This document shows positions 1 through 13,116 of a stretch of 13,116 bases of DNA, piece after piece. A program made the position numbers and the translations under genes. A model generated the notes under the pieces. It did no database searches. It had not been told where the DNA came from and was given only the letters and a program-made list of their open reading frames with translations. Positions within the stretch are counted from its first letter, which is position 1; every line of letters begins with the position of its first letter. The DNA is from a candidate division WOR-3 bacterium (lineage in GTDB: Bacteria > Hydrothermota > Hydrothermia > JBDRYB01): positions 1 through 13,116 of the forward strand of contig JBDRYB010000038.1 in assembly GCA_039803205.1 (NCBI GenBank), in the 5' to 3' direction.

Positions 1-457
1 AATCCGGCATATTCTCAGAACCCCTCCTCCAGTCCGAGGCCAGGCTCTCCTGGATAGCCTGGGACAGCACCCAGATAGGCTCTGAGGTGAGGATGTATAT
101 CAGGACGAGGTGGGATGGGAGCTCCCCTTGGACAAACTGGCGAGAGGTATCAAACGGGGAAACCGTATCCGAGTCCCCTTATTTCCCAGCGAGGGACATC
201 CAGTATCGCGCTGAGTTCAGGTGGAGAAATCCCTCTTGGCTCCCCTGGCTTGAGAAAGTTGAGTTGACCTCCCTTCCCCTCTCTGAGGATGAGGCCATCT
301 CAGGCTCAGAGGGCGTCCTGAGGTTCGGCTCCGGAAATGGGTTTATCTGGGTATCCTGGCCCAAAAACCAAGCTGATGTCTCGCTTTATTCCGCTGATGG
401 CAGGAGAATCGCCCTGAAGAGCCTACATGAAGGGAGGGCTGAATTCCGGGGCCTGAG
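1..457 (+). repeat. C-terminal constant region, copy A (matches 1992-2448 and 5518-5974)
   Basis: Manual alignment found 2 mismatches against copy B (128/2119, 443/2434) and about 10 against copy C. Confidence 0.95.
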
Positions 458-527
458 CTCAGGGGTGTATTACCTCTGGGTGAGTTCCCCCCAAAGCCTC
501 ATAAAAGAGAAGGTTGTCGTGAGATAA
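1..527 (+). CDS. 3' part (5'-truncated) of an FG-GAP/VCBS-repeat secreted protein with T9SS-type C-terminal sorting domain (paralogue A)
   Basis: Frame is open from base 3 (SGIFSEPLLQ...) to TAA at 525-527. Nearly identical to the 3' ends of 683..2518 and 4206..6044. CTD-like end VSLYSADGRRI...GVYYL...KVVVR. Confidence 0.9.
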   Translation, partial: SGIFSEPLLQSEARLSWIAWDSTQIGSEVRMYIRTRWDGSSPWTNWREVSNGETVSESPYFPARDIQYRAEFRWRNPSWLPWLEKVELTSLPLSEDEAISGSEGVLRFGSGNGFIWVSWPKNQADVSLYSADGRRIALKSLHEGRAEFRGLSSGVYYLWVSSPQSLIKEKVVVR

Positions 528-533
528 GGGATC

Positions 534-587
534 AAGGCCGGGCCGGAGACCCCTTGCACCTCCCGTTTGCTCCGGCCCGGCCTTTTT
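534..587 (+). terminator. Putative intrinsic terminator, 15-bp stem with 21-nt loop
   Basis: AAGGCCGGGCCGGAG (534-548) pairs with CTCCGGCCCGGCCTT (570-584), with TTTTT at 583-587, just after the stop codon. Confidence 0.75.
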
Positions 588-612
588 CAATTCCCACAAG
601 GGATTTGCTTGA

Positions 613-680
613 TTTTCTTTCAGTTTTCTTTCAGTTTTTTCCGTATAATATAGCCCTAGCTGAAACCTTTTGGAGGTGCA
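613..680 (+). promoter_or_regulatory. Putative promoter: 2x TTTTCTTTCAG direct repeat, TATAAT -10 (644-649), RBS GGAGGT (672-677)
   Basis: Perfect -10 hexamer conserved in all three module copies. No consensus -35 at 17 bp; the direct repeat covers that position. Confidence 0.6.
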
Positions 681-682
681 CT

Positions 683-876
683 ATGCTTGAACTTTGCATG
701 GCTCTCGTAGCGGGGTCCTGGACAGAGACAAGGCCCCAGGACTTCATGGATGGATGGTATGACCCTCTCCTGTATGTCTCACGGAGGCTTCAGGTTGAGG
801 GCGTGAATCCGGCCGACTCAGGAGCGGTGGAGTTCTATCCACGGTTTGACGCGAACAGGGATGGGTATTATGACCT
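683..876 (+). repeat. N-terminal constant region, copy B (matches 4206-4399)
   Basis: 687-837 is identical to the copy C counterpart; only a few substitutions up to the DGYYDL codons, then abrupt divergence. Confidence 0.95.
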
Positions 877-2518
877 TGTGGGAAGCGACGGGAACGGCCC
901 TTATATCAGACTTTTCCTTGGTTCACCTACGGGATATTCAAATACCAATGTGAGATTGTTCCCTATAACCTCAGGCGGCGCTTGCGATATGGCTGATCTC
1001 AATCTTGACGGGTGGCCGGAACTTATTCATTCTGGATACAAGATGCATGAATGCAGGATATATTGGGGGAGCCAAGCGGCAGGAGGGCCGGATCCCACTA
1101 ATTATACTACCCTTCCTCATGATAGCGCTGAAGCGGTATTCGTGAATGATTTGGACAGGGATACCTATCTGGACATAATTCTAGCGGAATCGGAAGCTGG
1201 AGGGCGCATCCGGGTCTATTGGGGGAGCTCCGGAGGCTATAACCCTGGACTTGTATCCTACAGAGATGATCTTTATGCTTATGGCCACAACATAGAAGTT
1301 GCGGATCTGAATAAGGATATGTATGAAGATGTGGTGCTCGTGCGTCGGGAGGATCCGCTCTGGGGACTTTCTATACTTTGGGGAGATGGGGATAGGGACC
1401 TACAAAACAACCTGGTTTGGTTTGATTGGGTTGGGAATAACACTGAGTTTATTCCCCATGGCCTTACCCTTGGAGATTTCAATAAGGATAGCTGGATAGA
1501 CATAGTGGTTACAAGCTGCGACTATTCTTTCCCCGCGGAGGCAGCAGTTTACTTCTCAGATAACGGTTCATTCAGTCCAAGTAACCGCCTAATTCTCCAT
1601 CCCAGCCATTCGTATGGTGGTTCATCTGCTTGGGATGTTAATGGGGATGGGTGGCTTGATATAGTGTGCTTCCGGGGAGGTGGAGGGGGTTGGAACGCTC
1701 CCTTGCTTCTCTACATTAACAAAGGGACTCCCCCGTATTTCAGTGATGATGACACAGTAAGAGTCGGCTACTCTGCTCAACACTCCGGAGGATTCTTGGG
1801 GGATTTTAATTGGGATGGAAAGGCGGACATTTTTGCCAATGTAAGAGAGCTTGCTTATGACTACGTATACTGGGGAGTCCAACCTACGGGTGCATATGAT
1901 AGTGTACAGATTCTGAGCGTTACCTATGATCACCACGGCGGGTTCCGTGAGTGCGGAAACATCTACGACCGCTCCCCTATGGCATGGTATGAATCCGGCA
2001 TATTCTCAGAACCCCTCCTCCAGTCCGAGGCCAGGCTCTCCTGGATAGCCTGGGACAGCACCCAGATAGGCTCTGAGGTGAGGATGTATATCAGGACGAG
2101 GTGGGATGGGAGCTCCCCATGGACAAACTGGCGAGAGGTATCAAACGGGGAAACCGTATCCGAGTCCCCTTATTTCCCAGCGAGGGACATCCAGTATCGC
2201 GCTGAGTTCAGGTGGAGAAATCCCTCTTGGCTCCCCTGGCTTGAGAAAGTTGAGTTGACCTCCCTTCCCCTCTCTGAGGATGAGGCCATCTCAGGCTCAG
2301 AGGGCGTCCTGAGGTTCGGCTCCGGAAATGGGTTTATCTGGGTATCCTGGCCCAAAAACCAAGCTGATGTCTCGCTTTATTCCGCTGATGGCAGGAGAAT
2401 CGCCCTGAAGAGCCTACATGAAGGGAGGGCTGAGTTCCGGGGCCTGAGAGCGGGAGTCTATTTCATAAAGCTTAACTTCCAAGAAGGTCATCTGACAGAG
2501 AAGATCATCGTAAGATAG
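683..2518 (+). CDS. FG-GAP/VCBS-repeat seven-blade beta-propeller secreted protein with T9SS-type CTD (paralogue B, 611 aa)
   Basis: ATG at 683 follows GGAGGT and matches the start of paralogue C. Seven DxxxDG-type motifs: DANRDG, DLNLDG, DLDRDT, DLNKDM, DFNKDS, DVNGDG, DFNWDG. CTD ends GVYFIKL...KIIVR. Confidence 0.9.
   Translation: MLELCMALVAGSWTETRPQDFMDGWYDPLLYVSRRLQVEGVNPADSGAVEFYPRFDANRDGYYDLVGSDGNGPYIRLFLGSPTGYSNTNVRLFPITSGGACDMADLNLDGWPELIHSGYKMHECRIYWGSQAAGGPDPTNYTTLPHDSAEAVFVNDLDRDTYLDIILAESEAGGRIRVYWGSSGGYNPGLVSYRDDLYAYGHNIEVADLNKDMYEDVVLVRREDPLWGLSILWGDGDRDLQNNLVWFDWVGNNTEFIPHGLTLGDFNKDSWIDIVVTSCDYSFPAEAAVYFSDNGSFSPSNRLILHPSHSYGGSSAWDVNGDGWLDIVCFRGGGGGWNAPLLLYINKGTPPYFSDDDTVRVGYSAQHSGGFLGDFNWDGKADIFANVRELAYDYVYWGVQPTGAYDSVQILSVTYDHHGGFRECGNIYDRSPMAWYESGIFSEPLLQSEARLSWIAWDSTQIGSEVRMYIRTRWDGSSPWTNWREVSNGETVSESPYFPARDIQYRAEFRWRNPSWLPWLEKVELTSLPLSEDEAISGSEGVLRFGSGNGFIWVSWPKNQADVSLYSADGRRIALKSLHEGRAEFRGLRAGVYFIKLNFQEGHLTEKIIVR
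1962..2448 (+). repeat. C-terminal constant region, copy B
   Basis: Begins TCTACGACCGCTCCCCTATGG (same as 5488) and ends GGCCTGAG. Confidence 0.95.
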
Positions 2519-2529
2519 GAGGTTTAACC

Positions 2530-4050
2530 ATGTGTAGCTTGCTCTTCAATATAGGTGTTCTGGGAGCCCTTTTCGCCAAGGGCTTGCCGGATCTGCAGAC
2601 GCTCCACTATGGCTCCTTTATGTGCACCACACGAGATGGAGGCTTCGCGGTCACCGGATATCTTCCTTCAGCGCTATTCGAAGGCGGAGGTCTCATAAAG
2701 CTCACTTCAACAGGCGAGCTGGATTGGGCAGTTGGGATATCAACCCTTCAACCGAGCTTTAGGCTTAGTGCCAGCGTGATCCAGACATCTGATGGTGGAT
2801 ACGCGATAGCAACAGACATAGAAAGGGAGGGGGCGCACGATTTTCTGGTCATTAAGCTCAACTCCAACGGTTCTTTCAGGTGGGCCAAGACCATAGGCGG
2901 AATCGTTGGAGATGATATCCCTACTTCCATAATAGAAACATACGATCACCATCTTGTAGTCTCAGGCTGGTCCACTAGCTACGGTAACGGAAGCACGGAT
3001 GCTCTTGTGGTTAGACTGGACGAGAACGCGGGGTTTGTGTGGGCTTGCACTTTGGGTTCACTATCGGAGGAAGAGATATACTCCTCTTCCCTTGCTCCTG
3101 GTGGTGACAACCGTTTTCTGTTTGCCGGAGTGGCTCACGGGGCCAATACGGATGTGATACTGTTTGAGTTGGACAACGCTGGAAACCCGATATACATGTA
3201 CAAATGCCAAGACATTGGAATTCCTAATGGTGAGGACTATGCAAGATGTGTTGTAGCCACTGCACCTGATAACGGGTTTTTGCTAGTTGGCGAAACGACG
3301 AGCTGGGGAGGTAGTGATATGTTCGTGGTCAGGGGAGATGCCACCGGAACAATGAGGTGGGCACGGCTAATTGGCGGACCGCTCGGAGAGGCCGCTCTCT
3401 CGGCCACGCAGACATCCGATGGGAACTTCGTTGTAGCCGGTATAACCTGGACATACAGCATAGGTGGAAGGGATCACATGATATTGAAAATGGATAACGA
3501 GGGGAATCTCCTGTGGTGCACTGGTTTTGGCGGACCTGACCAGGATTTCGCTCAGACGGTCGTTGAAGCTGAGGATGGAGACCTCGGTATCCTGGGTTGG
3601 GGAATGAGCTACGGTGTGCCAACGGCCCTATTGAAGATAAGAGCTGATGGGACCTATCCTAACTGCGTTATGGAGATCCGGCCGATTGTCTCAGAAGTGA
3701 TACCCAACCATGGCCCTCACTCCCTTGCTCACCAACCCTGCACCCCGGATATCCTACCCGCTGATGTCCAGATAACCCCATTTTCCACATCCCTTACTAA
3801 TATATGTGAACCTCTATACGAGGACCTCAAAGAGACACGAGATTTGCCTCACTCTTCCCTCCTCTGCGCTTCATCATCCGGAGGCCTCCTGTTCATCTCT
3901 CCAATTGAAACGAAGATAAGCATATACTATCCCGATGGCCGGATAGCCTATGTTGGTGAGCTAAGTGCAGGGCGAAACCGGATCGCTCTTGGACCAGGAA
4001 TATACCTGTGGCAGACAGGGACTTACAGCGGTAAAGCTGTGGTGAAGTAA
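2530..4050 (+). CDS. Secreted beta-propeller-repeat protein (QTSDGG-type repeats) with T9SS-like CTD
   Basis: 506 aa; RBS AGGAGGT overlaps the upstream TAG. About seven repeats: TRDGGFAVTG, QTSDGGYAIA, ETYDHHLVVSG, PGGDNRFLFAG, PDNGFLLVG, QTSDGNFVVAG, EAEDGDLGILG. C-terminus ISIYYPDGRI...GIYLW...KAVVK. Confidence 0.85.
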   Translation: MCSLLFNIGVLGALFAKGLPDLQTLHYGSFMCTTRDGGFAVTGYLPSALFEGGGLIKLTSTGELDWAVGISTLQPSFRLSASVIQTSDGGYAIATDIEREGAHDFLVIKLNSNGSFRWAKTIGGIVGDDIPTSIIETYDHHLVVSGWSTSYGNGSTDALVVRLDENAGFVWACTLGSLSEEEIYSSSLAPGGDNRFLFAGVAHGANTDVILFELDNAGNPIYMYKCQDIGIPNGEDYARCVVATAPDNGFLLVGETTSWGGSDMFVVRGDATGTMRWARLIGGPLGEAALSATQTSDGNFVVAGITWTYSIGGRDHMILKMDNEGNLLWCTGFGGPDQDFAQTVVEAEDGDLGILGWGMSYGVPTALLKIRADGTYPNCVMEIRPIVSEVIPNHGPHSLAHQPCTPDILPADVQITPFSTSLTNICEPLYEDLKETRDLPHSSLLCASSSGGLLFISPIETKISIYYPDGRIAYVGELSAGRNRIALGPGIYLWQTGTYSGKAVVK

Positions 4051-4057
4051 AGAGCCC

Positions 4058-4111
4058 AGGCCGGGCCGGAAATCCCTTGCACCTCCCGTTTGCTCCGGCC
4101 CGGCCTTTTTT
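4058..4111 (+). terminator. Putative intrinsic terminator (copy 2)
   Basis: AGGCCGGGCCGGA pairs with TCCGGCCCGGCCT, followed by a T6 tract. Confidence 0.75.
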
Positions 4112-4205
4112 CAATTCCCACAAGGGATTTACCCGATTCTTTTTAGTTTTCTTTCAGTTTTTTCCCGTATAATATAACCCTAGCTGAAACCTCTGGAGGT
4201 GCACT
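4058..4205 (+). repeat. Intergenic module copy 2
   Basis: Same hairpin, TTTTCTTTCAG, TATAAT (4168-4173) and GGAGGTGCACT as 535-682. Confidence 0.95.
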
Positions 4206-6044
4206 ATGTTTGAACTTTGCATGGCTCTCGTAGCGGGGTCCTGGACAGAGACAAGGCCCCAGGACTTCATGGATGGATGGTATGACCCTCTCCTGTATGT
4301 CTCACGGAGGCTTCAGGTTGAGGGCGTGAATCCGGCCGACTCAGGAGCGGTGGAGTTCTACCCACGGTTTGACGCGAACAGGGACGGATATTATGACCTG
4401 GTATCATCCGAGTATGGCGGGCCAAACATAATCATCTGGTGGGGAAGCCCAACAGGATACAGCTCAACAAACAGGCGAAACTTCCCGGTTACAACGGCCG
4501 GAAACTGCGACATGGCGGACCTGAACCTTGATGGGTGGCCAGAGCTCATTGCCTCATGCACGGGAAGCAACGATACCTGCAAGATATACTGGGGCTCTCA
4601 GGCATCCGGAGGCCCTGATCCCAACAACTTTACCCCTCTCCCTCACGGAGGCTCTGAAACCGTTTACATCTATGACCTGGACAAGGATACATACCTTGAT
4701 GTCGTGCTTGGAACCCAACTCGGTACATGGAGTCCAATCAAGGTCTTCTGGGGGGGGCCGGGGGGATATTCCCCTGGTAACCTCTCTGTAAGCCTTGATG
4801 TGAAGGTTCAAGGCCACAACCTTGAGATATGCGACCTCAACAAGGATGGATATCCGGATATCGTATCTCCATATGCAGACGCATCGGGATGGGGGCCGCA
4901 CATCCTTTGGGGAGATGCCACCCCGAGGGACCTCACGGACAACCCTACTTGGTTCCACACGAGATCAGGTGCCTCAAATGCCCACGGTATTACCTTGGCT
5001 GATCTCAACAACGACGGTTGGCTGGATATCGTGGTTTCTTCTTTTGCATCAGGGAACCTCTCATCCGTTTATTTCTCTGATAATGGAACCTTCAACCCGA
5101 CCAATTCCATTACCCTCACCACTTCCTCCTGCTATGGCGGTTCAATAGCCTGGGATTTCAACGAGGATGGCTGGCTTGACCTCCTGTTTCTGCCAGGATA
5201 CGCTACAGCAAAGAAGCCCACAATATACTTTAATACCGGGACTCCACCGTATTTCGCTGATGCGGATACCGTTGGTGTAGGTTTGGCGGTTCAGTATTCA
5301 GGCGGCTTCATAGCTGATTTCAACCTTGATGGGAAACCGGACCTCTTCGCGAACGGGTGGGACAACGTTATCGGCGTTGACACATCCTTTGTGTTCTGGG
5401 GAATAAGCCCCTCGGGCTCGTGCGACAGCATCCAGAAACTACCCACTAATATTGATCACCATGGGACCTTCCGTGAATACAGCAATGTCTACGACCGCTC
5501 CCCTATGGCATGGTATGAATCCGGCATATTCTCAGAACCCCTCCTCCAATCCGAGGCCAGGCTCTCCTGGGTAGCCTGGGACAGCACCCAGATAGGCTCT
5601 GAGGTGAGGATGTATATCAGGACGAGGTGGGATGGGAGCTCCCCTTGGACAAACTGGCGAGAGGTATCAAACGGGGAAACCGTATCTGAGTCCCCTTATT
5701 TCCCAGCGAGGGACATCCAGTATCGCGCTGAGTTCAGGTGGAGAAATCCCTCTTGGCTCCCCTGGCTTGAGAAAGTTGAGTTGACCTCCCTTCCCCTCTC
5801 TGAGGATGAGGCCATCTCAGGCTCAGAAGGCGTCCTGAGGTTCGGCTCCGGAAAAGGGTTTATCTGGGTATCCTGGCCTGGGAACCAAGCTGATGTCTCG
5901 CTTTATTCCGCTGATGGCAGGAGAATCGCCCTGAAGAGCCTACATGAAGGGAGGGCTGAGTTCCGGGGCCTGAGCTCAGGGGTGTATTACCTCTGGGTGA
6001 GTTCCCCCCAAAGCCTCATAAAAGAGAAGGTTGTCGTGAGATAA
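4206..6044 (+). CDS. FG-GAP/VCBS-repeat seven-blade beta-propeller secreted protein with T9SS-type CTD (paralogue C, 612 aa)
   Basis: RBS GGAGGT. Motifs DANRDG, DLNLDG, DLDKDT, DLNKDG, DLNNDG, DFNEDG, DFNLDG. CTD tail identical to paralogue A. Confidence 0.92.
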   Translation: MFELCMALVAGSWTETRPQDFMDGWYDPLLYVSRRLQVEGVNPADSGAVEFYPRFDANRDGYYDLVSSEYGGPNIIIWWGSPTGYSSTNRRNFPVTTAGNCDMADLNLDGWPELIASCTGSNDTCKIYWGSQASGGPDPNNFTPLPHGGSETVYIYDLDKDTYLDVVLGTQLGTWSPIKVFWGGPGGYSPGNLSVSLDVKVQGHNLEICDLNKDGYPDIVSPYADASGWGPHILWGDATPRDLTDNPTWFHTRSGASNAHGITLADLNNDGWLDIVVSSFASGNLSSVYFSDNGTFNPTNSITLTTSSCYGGSIAWDFNEDGWLDLLFLPGYATAKKPTIYFNTGTPPYFADADTVGVGLAVQYSGGFIADFNLDGKPDLFANGWDNVIGVDTSFVFWGISPSGSCDSIQKLPTNIDHHGTFREYSNVYDRSPMAWYESGIFSEPLLQSEARLSWVAWDSTQIGSEVRMYIRTRWDGSSPWTNWREVSNGETVSESPYFPARDIQYRAEFRWRNPSWLPWLEKVELTSLPLSEDEAISGSEGVLRFGSGKGFIWVSWPGNQADVSLYSADGRRIALKSLHEGRAEFRGLSSGVYYLWVSSPQSLIKEKVVVR

Positions 6045-6168
6045 GGGATCAAGGCCGGGCCGGAGACCCCTTGCACCTCCCGTTTGTTCCGGCCCGGCCT
6101 TTTTCAATTCCCACAAGGGATTTGCTTGATTTTCTTTCAGTTTTCTTTCAGTCCATTCCGTATAATAT
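5488..6168 (+). repeat. C-terminal constant region copy C plus intergenic module copy 3 (5518-6168 matches 1-651)
   Basis: Direct repeat at offset 5517 from window start; homology ends just after TATAATAT. Confidence 0.95.
6051..6104 (+). terminator. Putative intrinsic terminator (copy 3)
   Basis: Same stem with one C>T change giving a G-U pair at the top; T5 tract follows. Confidence 0.75.
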
Positions 6169-6207: not shown

Positions 6208-7785
6208 ATGAACTATCTAATCATGCTCATAGGATACGCTTGGCCGCCTGGATGGTGGCCGCAGTATGGCGCGGATGCCCAGCACACGAGGGTTCAGCTC
6301 ATGAAGGGGAACATGATAGGGCAACCTGCCATCATAGGAATCAATCTTTCCAGTGGAACGGAGAGCGAGGGCCCTGCCATAGCAACGATATCCGGAGTGA
6401 GCCACATCTTCCTTGAGTACGACTATGGAGACCCTGATGGGATAATTGCAATAAGGTATGTTGGTTTCTACGAGAGAGCGTGGAGCTGGGACTACGCTAA
6501 TGTTCCATCCCAGGGCTCTGCTTTGGCTGTTTGGGATGTTGACAACGACGGGACAGTGGAGGTGCTTCACGCCAACCAATATACCTCCGAGGACATTGGG
6601 GCCATATTTTGCCGGGTGGGGGCCACCGGGGTTCTAGAGTGGTATGGCCCTTACGATCAGCCGGATGCCGCGACTCCAACCATTTATGATCTGGATGGCA
6701 ACGGAACCATGGAGATATTCTTCGGGTGCATGACGGATGATACTCTCTACTGTTTAAATTCCAACGGAACTTTGCGCTGGAAGTCACCAAAACCCTCTGG
6801 TGGCGGGGACATGAATTACGCTCCTGCGGTTGGACAGATTATCCCCGGTGGAGACCCTGAGATTGTGGTTCAAACAGGGGATTATATTGCCATGTATAAT
6901 GCGAGGACAGGGGCTTTGCTCGCCTCCAGAGATATGCTCAGTGGCACCCTTTGTAGTGCACCGGCAATCGCAGATGTGGATAAAGATGGTGTTATGGAGG
7001 TCTTCATATACAAGGATTCATCAGATGTTCTTGGAGAGCGTCTCTGGTGCTTGAAACCCTCGGGTTCTGGCTTCACCCCCCTTTGGTCCAAACAGGTCTC
7101 TTGCGGCGGAAATGTTCAGAAACAGGGCATGGGCATAGCAGATCTCAACAACGACGGGTGGCTTGATGTGGTTATAGGTGCCGGCGGCACATCGGACAGA
7201 GTTTACTGTTTTAGGGGTTATGATGGTTATCAGATATGGGTATCTAATCAGCTAGCGGGAGATGTTCATAGGGGCGTGGCTATCGCCGATATTGATGGGG
7301 ATAATCGCTGGGAGGTCATCGCCCAGACAATTCCAGGTTGGATATACTGCCTAGCCGGGGAAAACGGGGCGATCCAGTGGCAGGTTGAGTTGCCTTCTTG
7401 CACGGATGCCCACGATGTCAGTGTAGGAGATACGGACAACGATGGTTGCTCCGAGATAGTCGTGGCTGGCGACGGTGGTTCCAGGCTTTGGGTTCTGGAC
7501 AGGAGTGGGACTAACTGCGGCTCGGTTGACGCTGAGGAGGCCGAGACAGGGGAGCGGGCCATCAAGGCTTGGTTTTCGGATGGTAAGATCTGCATCTCAT
7601 CGCCTCGTGATGGTAATGCCATGATCAGCATCTACGACCCCGTGGGCCGTCTTGTTCTATACAGAGAGATGAAGCTCCTGCGAGGAGAAAATTCGCTGAT
7701 TGTTGACCTAGAACCAGGGATATATATGGGCATAATAAATACAGGGAAAGAAACAGCGAGGTTCAGGATCCTCTTGACGAAATAG
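6208..7785 (+). CDS. FG-GAP / PQQ-like beta-propeller secreted protein with T9SS-like CTD
   Basis: 525 aa; RBS GGAGGT at 6197-6202. N-terminal [11 protein letters not shown] motif; DVDNDG, DLDGNG, DVDKDG, DLNNDG, DIDGDN, DTDNDG motifs. C-terminus [11 protein letters not shown]...PGIYM. Confidence 0.88.
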
Positions 7786-11712: not shown

Positions 11713-13032
11713 ATGGGACTGAAGCAGTCAAGATACAACTTCTTCTTTGATGGGGACGGAGGGGCCAAGCTCGCTTTCAACTCCATGACAGCGGCCCTGG
11801 CAGAGATAGAGCCAGATAAGTGGCCCATAATACAGAAACTTCTGGACGATCCGAACAGAGCGCCCCTGAACGAGACCGAAAAGGAGCTCCTTGAACAGCT
11901 CAAATACGGAGGGTTCCTCATAGACGAGGACTTTGATGAGATAGCCTACCTCAAGGTCATGAACAGGATGGCAAGGTTCTCAAGGGACAGCCTGGGCCTG
12001 ACAATATGCCCTACCCTAAACTGCAACTTCAGGTGCTTCTACTGCTACGAGACACACCCTCAGGGGGTCATGTCAAAAGAGGTTCAGGATAAGCTGGTTG
12101 AGTTTGCTAAGGAAAGGCTCGAAGGATCTAAGAGCTTTCAGGTAACCTGGTATGGCGGTGAGCCCCTCCTTGCCTTTGATGTGATTGAGAACCTCTCGGA
12201 GAGGTTCATTGAGTATTGCGACGAAAAGGGCATTGATTACTCTGCCTTCATCGTTACCAACGGCTATCTTCTCACCCCGGACAAGGCCAAGCGCCTCGCG
12301 GATCTCAGGGTCTCAGGGGCCCAGATAACCCTTGATGGCCCTCCTGAGGTTCACGACAAGCGCCGTGTCCTGGCCAACGGGGGGCCGACATTCTGGAGGA
12401 TTATGGAGAACCTGAAATCCGCTCTGGGGTTTATTCCGAACATAACCATAAGGATAAATGTGGACAGGGAGAACAGGGACAGGGCTTTGGAACTTCTGGA
12501 TGTGCTGGAGAGGGAGGGATTAAAGGATAGATTGATAGTTTCAATCGGAAGAGTACATCGTATAAGTAACGTATGCAACGATATGGTAGAAGAGATCTCC
12601 TACAACAAGGAGGAGTATAGAGAAATACTTTTAGAGTTGCGGGAGGAAGGTTACAAAAGAGGGTTTGGACTCTGGCAAAGACCAAAGTCAAGGGATGTTT
12701 TTTGCGCGGCAGAGAGAATCAATTTCTTTTTGGTAGACTGTGAGGGGCGTTTGTTCAAGTGCTGGACAGAGATAGATGATAACAAACCCGTAGGCAATGT
12801 CTGGCCGGAGCGAAAGCGGGATTTCTCCAGGGAAAGCAAGTGGCTATTGCATGAACCTTTTGAAAACCCGACTTGTTTGGGGTGCAGATTGCTACCAATA
12901 TGTATGGGGGGATGCCCTTACCAAGCTATGAGGGATCAAAAGCTGCCCTGCGAATACACCGGCTCTGACGAGTTGCAAAAGCATCTGGTCATGAGTTATT
13001 CTAGCCGGCATGGTTGGTGTCCGGAGCTATAA
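11713..13032 (+). CDS. Radical SAM / SPASM domain protein, probable peptide maturase
   Basis: CNFRCFYC (CX3CX2C), WYGGEP, TNG, QITLDG. SPASM C-x13-G-x4-C ... CxxC-x5-C-x3-C ... C. N-terminal SRYN...GGFLI extension typical of the RRE-like domain of peptide maturases. Confidence 0.92.
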   Translation: MGLKQSRYNFFFDGDGGAKLAFNSMTAALAEIEPDKWPIIQKLLDDPNRAPLNETEKELLEQLKYGGFLIDEDFDEIAYLKVMNRMARFSRDSLGLTICPTLNCNFRCFYCYETHPQGVMSKEVQDKLVEFAKERLEGSKSFQVTWYGGEPLLAFDVIENLSERFIEYCDEKGIDYSAFIVTNGYLLTPDKAKRLADLRVSGAQITLDGPPEVHDKRRVLANGGPTFWRIMENLKSALGFIPNITIRINVDRENRDRALELLDVLEREGLKDRLIVSIGRVHRISNVCNDMVEEISYNKEEYREILLELREEGYKRGFGLWQRPKSRDVFCAAERINFFLVDCEGRLFKCWTEIDDNKPVGNVWPERKRDFSRESKWLLHEPFENPTCLGCRLLPICMGGCPYQAMRDQKLPCEYTGSDELQKHLVMSYSSRHGWCPEL

Positions 13033-13049
13033 CAACAAGGAGGTGAACT

Positions 13050-13116
13050 ATGAGATACATATGGAAGCCAACCGAGGAACACGCTGAGTCGTGTTGGGAT
13101 ATCTGCCCAACCAAGT
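13050..13116 (+). CDS. Candidate Cys-containing RiPP precursor peptide (3'-truncated): MRYIWKPTEEHAESCWDICPTK...
   Basis: Strong RBS AAGGAGGTGA at 13037-13046; starts 17 nt after the rSAM stop; open to the window end; CxxxC. Confidence 0.7.
   Translation, partial: MRYIWKPTEEHAESCWDICPTK

Follow-up and report, generated by a model that had tools for sequence, protein, structure and literature searches.

Near-identical arms around diverged propeller cores in predicted secreted proteins of a hot-spring WOR-3 bacterium

We analysed a stretch of 13,116 nucleotides (nt) from a candidate division WOR-3 bacterium, referred to as the window, which is the entire contig C38 (JBDRYB010000038.1) of the genome G000 (GCA_039803205.1; 2.3 Mb, 96% complete). 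Its left part carries three paralogous genes, A, B and C, for predicted secreted proteins in which a variable core lies between two constant ends, here called the N arm and the C arm and encoded by the 5' and the 3' arm of the DNA. We find that the arms are near-identical and the cores are old. We think it likely that propeller heads, or patches of them, are exchanged between the shared arms by recombination of the RecA type, an exchange likely eased by the loss of mismatch repair.

Between B and C the 5' arm (194 nt) shows 4 mismatches and the 3' arm (487 nt) shows 10, and the 3' arm of A, which is truncated in the window (1-457), differs from that of B at 2 positions. The original prediction, made from the letters of the window alone, had described these shared ends and had placed the start of the divergence at the motif DANRDGYYDL and its end at YDRSP; the boundaries do lie there. 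It had also claimed that silent sites are near-identical in the arms and diverged in the core. Fourfold-degenerate sites do differ between B and C at 2/25 positions in the N arm, 3/74 in the C arm and 55/81 in the core, that is, 5/99 in the pooled arms against 55/81 (Fisher test, p ~2e-20). The cores have 185 of 356 amino acids in common. As a scale, when species of the genus are compared, ordinary orthologues (three genes) show differences at 51-62% of their fourfold sites, so the cores date back at least to the separation of the species. The identity extends past the arms through a hairpin and a promoter-like cassette: positions 1-651 and 5518-6168, a repeat that brackets the genes B, D and C, are 97.8% identical, and 535-876 and 4058-4399 are 95.1% identical. 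A constant 3' end had been proposed as well, which is true of the 3' arm itself and fails at the very end of the gene, where the last 22 residues of B differ from those of A and C (7/22 identical). These residues are of another type, so the tail is a separate module. Homogenisation does not reach every arm either. The N arm of A is not homogenised with those of B and C (46/53 amino acids identical, 9/20 fourfold sites different), and two further paralogues, on the contigs C30 and C2, have unhomogenised arms with 69-81% DNA identity.

Next, we asked what the variable segment is. Gene B has a match to the Pfam family FG-GAP_3 (PF13517) and seven motifs of the DxN/DxDG type. An AlphaFold model of its product, based on an alignment of 79 sequences, has a mean pLDDT of 92 and matches seven-blade propellers over residues ~55-425 with Z scores of 26-29 (4a7k, Z 28.9; 7cec_A, Z 26.9; CRTAC1, 9etn_A, Z 26.2 with a root-mean-square deviation of 2.9 over 339). 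The variable segment is therefore essentially the propeller, as had been supposed, with the seven repeats, the DxN/DxDG loops and the closed ring of an FG-GAP seven-blade propeller. It resembles the propellers of integrin-alpha and CRTAC1 in this fold and in the seven DxDxDG-type loops on one face, but the identity to them is ~10-13%, and the proteins described here are bacterial and carry a tail for the type IX secretion system (T9SS). With loop classes taken from the secondary structure of the model and the seven motifs, and not from coordinates, the identity among the cores of A, B, C and a fourth core, X, is 0.83 in the a-b (calcium-type) loops and 0.64 in the c-d loops, against 0.20 in the b-c and 0.29 in the d-a loops; the length varies in 6 of the 7 b-c loops and in none of the 7 a-b loops. 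By propeller topology, the b-c and d-a loops make up the face opposite the calcium loops, which in integrins is the ligand face. According to the model, then, the variation concentrates on one face of the propeller, opposite the calcium loops, and the expected clustering of variable residues on one face is borne out. The two arms may fold together into one stalk domain; a search of the ESM Atlas with the C arm returned only scores of 0.80 or less.

Arm and core have different histories. In a tree of the C arm (31 rows, six partial rows omitted) A, B and C form one clade (support 100/98), whereas in a tree of the core (34 rows, three omitted) A groups with the cores found in the slot of A in the relatives G002 and L026 (70-71% identity), while B and C take other positions. 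Within a species the arms are near-identical, from one species to the next their identity is 70-80%, and cores are common to several species. Selection or constraint alone does not explain arms that are 98% identical, because in nine single-copy orthologues of the C2 type the C arm (67-85% identity) is no more conserved than the core (66-88%). Related genomes carrying the same fixed paralogues with arms as diverged as the cores would have spoken against the original prediction; this objection does not apply, and in the single-copy orthologues the C arm diverges like the core.

Two protein records from other assemblies, P0121 and P0021, hold the core X inside the arms of A. In P0121 it is flanked by the N arm of A (53/53) and by a C arm of the G000 type (150/152). 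Core X is 54-57% identical to A, B and C and 82% identical to the core in the A slot of the relative G001, which is in turn 56% identical to A; a tblastn search of G000 did not find X (best match 56%). Between the regulator gene and gene E there is a single copy in G002 and L026, as against three in G000, and in G001 the sequence breaks within an arm. The signals are mixed as well: core A occurs with starts of the A, B and C type. In another species, L26_A and P0005 share the C arm (155/161) and the tail (22/22) with cores that agree at 171/344 residues, and in a third, the block of ~95% identity shared by P0179 and P0004 is confined to the beginning of the C arm. Smaller replacements are seen too. 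P0177 equals the C2 gene outside residues ~61-150 and 391-420, where it matches P0013 and P0014 instead, and the best match of a replaced stretch in P0168 is P0139; both sets of patches match other lineages and not the paralogues of G000. The junctions lie after RFDANR (B/C), after DLFS (A/X), within the signal (P0129, P0132) or within the core (P0177, P0168). Core X in the arms of A, the discordant trees, the replaced patches and the one-faced variation all favour the proposal that the arms serve as homology for the exchange of cores. The pattern is not universal, since a distant trio (P0024, P0025 and P0027, on one contig of 9,437 nt) has arms that are not homogenised, with C arms at 54-60% identity, and so do the N arms of the tandem pair F1/F2 on L022 (8/18 fourfold sites different). 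A scan of genome contigs gave distant FG-GAP matches only. Shorter homologues were also sought; 9 partial proteins, all distant, were obtained, and the 6 that were compared had no arms of the G000 type.

The same arrangement recurs elsewhere in the genome. We compared G000 with itself and applied a two-state segmentation to 8 hand-picked pairs. Seven of them are the same at both ends and diverged between (B/C, C21/C4, C21/C3 and pairs on C14, C26, C39 and C40), and the eighth shares one end only. The pair C21/C4 lies on different contigs and has arms at 98% and cores at 56% identity; the C4 core is 79-81% identical to its counterparts in G001 and G002 and the C21 core 89% identical to P0144, with C arms at 78-80%. 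The families concerned are unrelated and have no sequence in common. Counting a block as at least 75 nt at 92% identity or more, and after the removal of one pair of overlapping open reading frames (ORFs), 20 of 166 cargo genes in G000 share a block with another, compared with 0/77 in G013 and 0/52 in G007, two mismatch-repair-positive controls represented by their cargo regions (60 and 56 stretches). A gene-level Fisher test (20/166 against 0/129) overstates this difference, as the genes are not independent.

What could have lowered the barrier to such recombination? MutS domain I (MutS_I) has no match in the three genomes of the genus (86-98% complete), compared with 38/38 other genomes of the class; the MutL domain PF01119 is found in 0/3 and 32/38, respectively, and NucS in 0/3. 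Between hprK and miaA, all three genomes keep a C-terminal stub of MutL of ~190 amino acids (72-74% identical); in G004 a complete MutL of 557 residues stands there, before a miaA-like gene. Because the stub sits in the syntenic place in all three, the loss of MutL is not a gap in the sequence, and the conservation of the stub suggests a retained or a new role. With no MutS1, no full MutL and no NucS, the genus is, judged by its gene content, a mismatch-repair-deficient lineage. A passage of PMC2884548 suspects that the loss of mutS or mutL raises homeologous recombination. In another part of the class, G003 (L085, G003:C73) has MutS1, its best match to the stub is a frame of 373 amino acids, and the three genomes of its family are without PF01119; these genes possibly reflect a second, partial decay of mismatch repair.

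How might the exchange proceed? Loss of mutS or mutL raises homeologous recombination, and the loss of repair probably eases the exchange of cores, although this is a correlation in one lineage. Interchangeable arms would keep recombining and would stay identical within a species, and they could act as landing homology for heads or single blades from other strains or lineages. Crossovers or conversion tracts may begin at the motifs on the propeller edge, RFDANRDG and DHH..FRE..YDRSP, or alternatively further out, in the signal, tail, hairpin or promoter. An incoming allele would then replace the whole head or a few blades, or alter the copy number (one in G002 and L026, three here). The heads would be too diverged to homogenise, and selection on binding likely keeps them diverse. 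The steps that we infer are secretion, binding, a dependence on RecA, horizontal import and selection, together with a causal part played by the repair loss; RecA and ComEC are present in G000. As each copy has its own promoter-like cassette, all copies look expressible together, and since they are also intact, we would expect a repertoire whose members are expressed together and which turns over across the population, and not a switch fed by silent cassettes. More tentatively, and with rather less confidence than doubt, one may think of a genus-wide library fed by recombination: after the loss of mismatch repair, more than 100 secreted proteins would use species-specific stalks, tails and promoters as universal sockets for circulating heads and single blades, by RecA alone. 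If true, this would be an antibody-like repertoire in a free-living thermophile.

Several explanations compete with an exchange of heads. According to one, A, B and C are old fixed paralogues, and gene conversion passively homogenises their neutral ends while cores are never exchanged. This would account for identical arms, tails and promoters, for the presence of core A in the same slot of G000, G002 and L026, and for homogenised blocks that we also see in two regulator genes and in tails alone. It does not predict a core inside the arms of A that is absent from G000, an X-like core in the A slot of G001, patches that derive from other lineages or a varying copy number at the locus, and we regard it as unlikely. 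A dedicated programmed system, be it a recombinase of the integron or shufflon type or a retroelement, that would move the cores or diversify them could be suspected from the regular units of gene, hairpin and promoter, from boundaries that in several pairs lie close to the same two motifs and from 7 matches to tyrosine recombinases elsewhere in G000. We consider it very improbable. No tyrosine recombinase matches on C38 or C16 (serine recombinases were not searched), so the adjacent enzyme of an integron or shufflon is missing; there is no single fixed crossover site, as the junctions shift between pairs; the unrelated families with the pattern share no sequence; and the reverse transcriptase (RVT_1) of a diversity-generating retroelement has no match in this 96% complete genome. 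These absences and the shifting junctions agree with the original suggestion of exchange without a dedicated recombinase.

The possibility that we rate lowest of all is an assembly artefact, in which alleles of different strains were strung into an array or the arms were collapsed to a consensus. Such arms break metagenome assemblies in practice and can scramble gene order: contigs do break within the arms in G000, G001 and L022, and the gene order in the window is not fixed, since no listed contig spans an arm. The record P0131, which joins core A to a tail of the B type and lies on a contig equal in length to the one with a partial C, implies the equally valid order A-D-C-(B)-E, either a rearrangement or a choice of the assembler. 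In addition, the 90% cluster of B has one member. In the run X1, on the other hand, the contig depth is 25.2 for core B, 27.7 for gene D, 28.1 for core C and 28 for gene E, and 67.4 for the 3' arm, about 2.4 times that of the cores, both of which are at single-copy depth; contigs of the cores enter the arms without differences. X1 may be the source of the assembly itself, and the four runs compared, in all of which both cores are at least partly covered, come from one study. The arms bear copy-specific single-nucleotide polymorphisms, assemblers merge only sequence that is already near-identical, and the pattern recurs in other species and families. The copies are real, and a collapse of identical arms, which had been named beforehand as a possible objection, is not borne out.

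There remain a number of points that weigh against the exchange of heads eased by repair loss. The swapped forms are protein records that lack their DNA context; the arms of P0021 and records with neighbouring accessions (P0176 and P0168 are identical to G000 proteins at 594/613 and 572/615 residues) suggest that it belongs to the species of G000; and the tail swaps in P0131 and P0178 can be assembly paths. No recombinant junction within one sample was found in the short-read contigs, none of which spans an arm. DprA was not found in G000, and natural transformation is only a candidate route of DNA import. A MutS2-type gene is the only one of its kind left in the genus, and the title of a reference in PMC2582958 cites MutS2 as suppressing recombination. 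Only 8 of the 228 pairs of G000 cargo genes at 45-90% identity share a block, and of these one is an artefact of overlapping ORFs and one a duplicate of a whole gene. Finally, mismatch repair is lost in one lineage only, and the zeros of the two controls cannot test the link to repair, because in these genomes no more than 4 and 3 paralogue pairs reach an identity of 45%.

Genes with conserved flanks and a variable middle, recombined without a site-specific enzyme, are familiar from the cassette systems of antigenic variation, such as vlsE of Borrelia, msp2 of Anaplasma and pilE/pilS of Neisseria. The constant flanks are alike, but here there are neither silent partial cassettes nor a single expression site: the ORFs of B and C are complete, as is that of A in P0131, and all three come with their own start, ribosome site and promoter-like cassette. 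A closer parallel is given by babA/babB and homA/homB of Helicobacter pylori, of which a section of PMC2795765 reports concerted evolution of the 3' segment within a genome, through gene conversion, and a middle region that persists as distinct alleles. In both cases the terminal segment clusters by genome and the middle by allele (here in the trees of C arm and core and in a second family), and in both there is no repair of the MutHLS type and a leftover MutS homologue; for H. pylori, PMC2582958 states that MutHLS repair is lacking and that the MutS homologue is not used in repair. The differences are that our proteins are predicted T9SS-type FG-GAP propellers and not members of the Helicobacter outer-membrane family, that the paralogue cores are ~52% identical whereas homA and homB are >90% identical overall, that both ends, the hairpin and the promoter are shared and cores cross species boundaries, and that the organism comes from hot-spring metagenomes and not from a human host. 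For Porphyromonas gingivalis, parts of PMC5266723 describe how allelic exchange and the rearrangement of domains diversify T9SS cargo and propose frequency-dependent selection. There too, T9SS surface proteins vary by homologous recombination between strains, but what is exchanged are adhesin domains of gingipains and alleles of single loci; here it would be a propeller, exchanged within flanks that coexisting paralogues have in common, in no fewer than seven families and in a lineage without mismatch repair. The system works like these two but is a member of neither family. Our literature search, with most subscription journals outside its scope, found nothing on WOR-3 with type IX secretion or with FG-GAP, nor, judged by titles and the opening lines of abstracts, on such a system, and the main text of a study of 181 WOR-3 genomes (PMC12542636) does not mention secretion, T9SS, repair, recombination, propellers or adhesins, although its supplements could list repair genes.

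The features of the locus are collected in Table 1. Within the array of beta-propeller genes, gene D belongs to a propeller family other than that of A, B and C. The 5' part of A probably joins the window start, as the end of C16 overlaps it by exactly 114 bases; on C16, the core of A sits behind a divergent gene that contains TPR repeats. The homologues that bear names are from candidate division WOR-3, and the stretch is present in five metagenome runs, all from hot springs and from two studies, four of which hold at least half of its words.

Table 1. Coordinates of the genes and elements discussed; positions without a contig refer to the window.
Feature	Position	Strand	Description
Gene A, 3' part only	3-527 (segment 1..527)	+	ORF; C arm 1-457 and T9SS-like tail of the A/C type
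Gene A, 5' part and core	G000:C16:2-1561	-	placed by contig overlap; putative join
GC hairpin	534..587	+	CACCTCC loop and T run; RNAfold; repeat family D7
Promoter-like cassette	612..682	+	TCTTTCAG at 616-623 and 627-634, TATAAT at 644-649, GGAGGT ribosome site
Gene B	683..2518	+	611 amino acids; short signal, N arm, seven-blade FG-GAP propeller, beta-rich C arm, T9SS type A tail
B 5' constant arm	683..876	+	compared with 4206-4399
B variable core (propeller)	877..1961	+	seven DxN/DxD motifs at residues 56, 105, 156, 208, 265, 318, 374
B 3' constant arm	1962..2448	+	compared with 5488-5974
B-type tail end	2449..2518	+	22/22 amino acids identical to P0131
Gene D	2530..4050	+	unrelated propeller (DUF5122/delta-60-like), cargo-type tail
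Second hairpin and promoter-like cassette	4058..4205	+	4058-4399 repeats 535-876
Gene C	4206..6044	+	612 amino acids; N arm 4206-4399, core 4400-5487, C arm 5488-5974, A/C-type tail 5975-6044
Third hairpin and promoter-like cassette	6045..6168	+	right end of the 651-nt direct repeat around B-D-C
Gene E	6208..7785	+	another FG-GAP cargo gene; anchors the locus on its right, conserved in G001, G002 and L026
MutL_C stub	G000:C5:75135-75797 (L079:3136-3798)	-	also in L081 and L082
Other genes with the arm-core-arm pattern	G000 C4:81530-83392 and C21:3412-5349; C21:32097/C3:143581		secreted-protein families, some on separate contigs

A, B and C are predicted to be T9SS type A cargo, that is, secreted or surface proteins. 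Against a cut-off of 23 for the tail family TIGR04183, B scores 25.6 bits and A 23.2, and the tail of A also matches Por_Secre_tail over the cut-off; C is borderline, with 20 bits, below the cut-off, and 23 when scored together with its neighbours. G000 has 125 matches to T9SS tails, 109 of them over the cut-off, and its translocon gene SprA scores over the cut-off on C15. We rejected the idea that an expansion of cargo is a trait of the genus alone, as T9SS tails occur in 41/41 genomes of the class (up to 84 in G013). The three genomes of the genus have at least 108, 82 and 50 matches to FG-GAP_3, as against 0-30 in 12 other genomes of the class.

The hairpin at 534-587 is likely a terminator, with further copies after D (from 4058) and after C (from 6051). 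A scan for sigma-70 promoters and terminators listed neither the cassette nor the hairpin; the consensus terminator scan missed the latter because its loop exceeds 8 nt. In the cassette, a direct repeat of TCTTTCAG with a period of 11 bp ends ~9-10 nt before a TATAAT-like hexamer, and such a cassette precedes A, B, C (with a degenerate first repeat), E and their counterparts in G001, G002 and L026. SARP sites, as outlined in a passage of PMC4393881, consist of two repeats 11 bp apart that end 8 bp before the -10 box; the spacing of the cassette resembles them, and a regulatory function would follow by analogy. The cassette is likely the site of a regulator encoded by the divergent gene on C16, which has TPR matches only. 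In two related contigs this gene appears to be split into two frames (L024:7676-8185 and L025:8065-9930).

Some further observations concern the rest of the window and its variation. A radical SAM gene with a cysteine-rich tail lies at 11713-13032, and a near-identical copy of 11742-11864 is found on C3; the final 150 nt (12967-13116) match C1:378-527, and a short ORF begins at ~13049. Strain variation is seen as a 12-nt deletion in gene D at 3214 in the runs X3 and X4 and as small indels in X3 in the region of the last b-c loop of core C (5366-5370). One X4 contig matches the window at places that none of the G000 paralogues matches; this hints weakly at a further core, and we did not use it as evidence. 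Finally, G000 contains 93 linked regions of near-identical repeats, mostly intergenic and 100-1200 nt long, many of them located at the ends of contigs (such as C26:15188-15825, C30:1915-2532 and C34:476-958), which are perhaps several small mobile or REP-like (repetitive extragenic palindrome) elements.

Surface genes with constant ends and a variable middle are known mostly from pathogens under immune pressure. Here, we see the same design in several unrelated families of secreted proteins of an uncultured hot-spring lineage, alongside a loss of mismatch repair at the level of the genus. Without a host, candidate drivers are phages, prey or the binding to surfaces. The layout of head and socket is also a ready scaffold for thermostable binding proteins, and the lineage makes it testable whether losing a barrier to recombination lets a surface repertoire expand and turn over.

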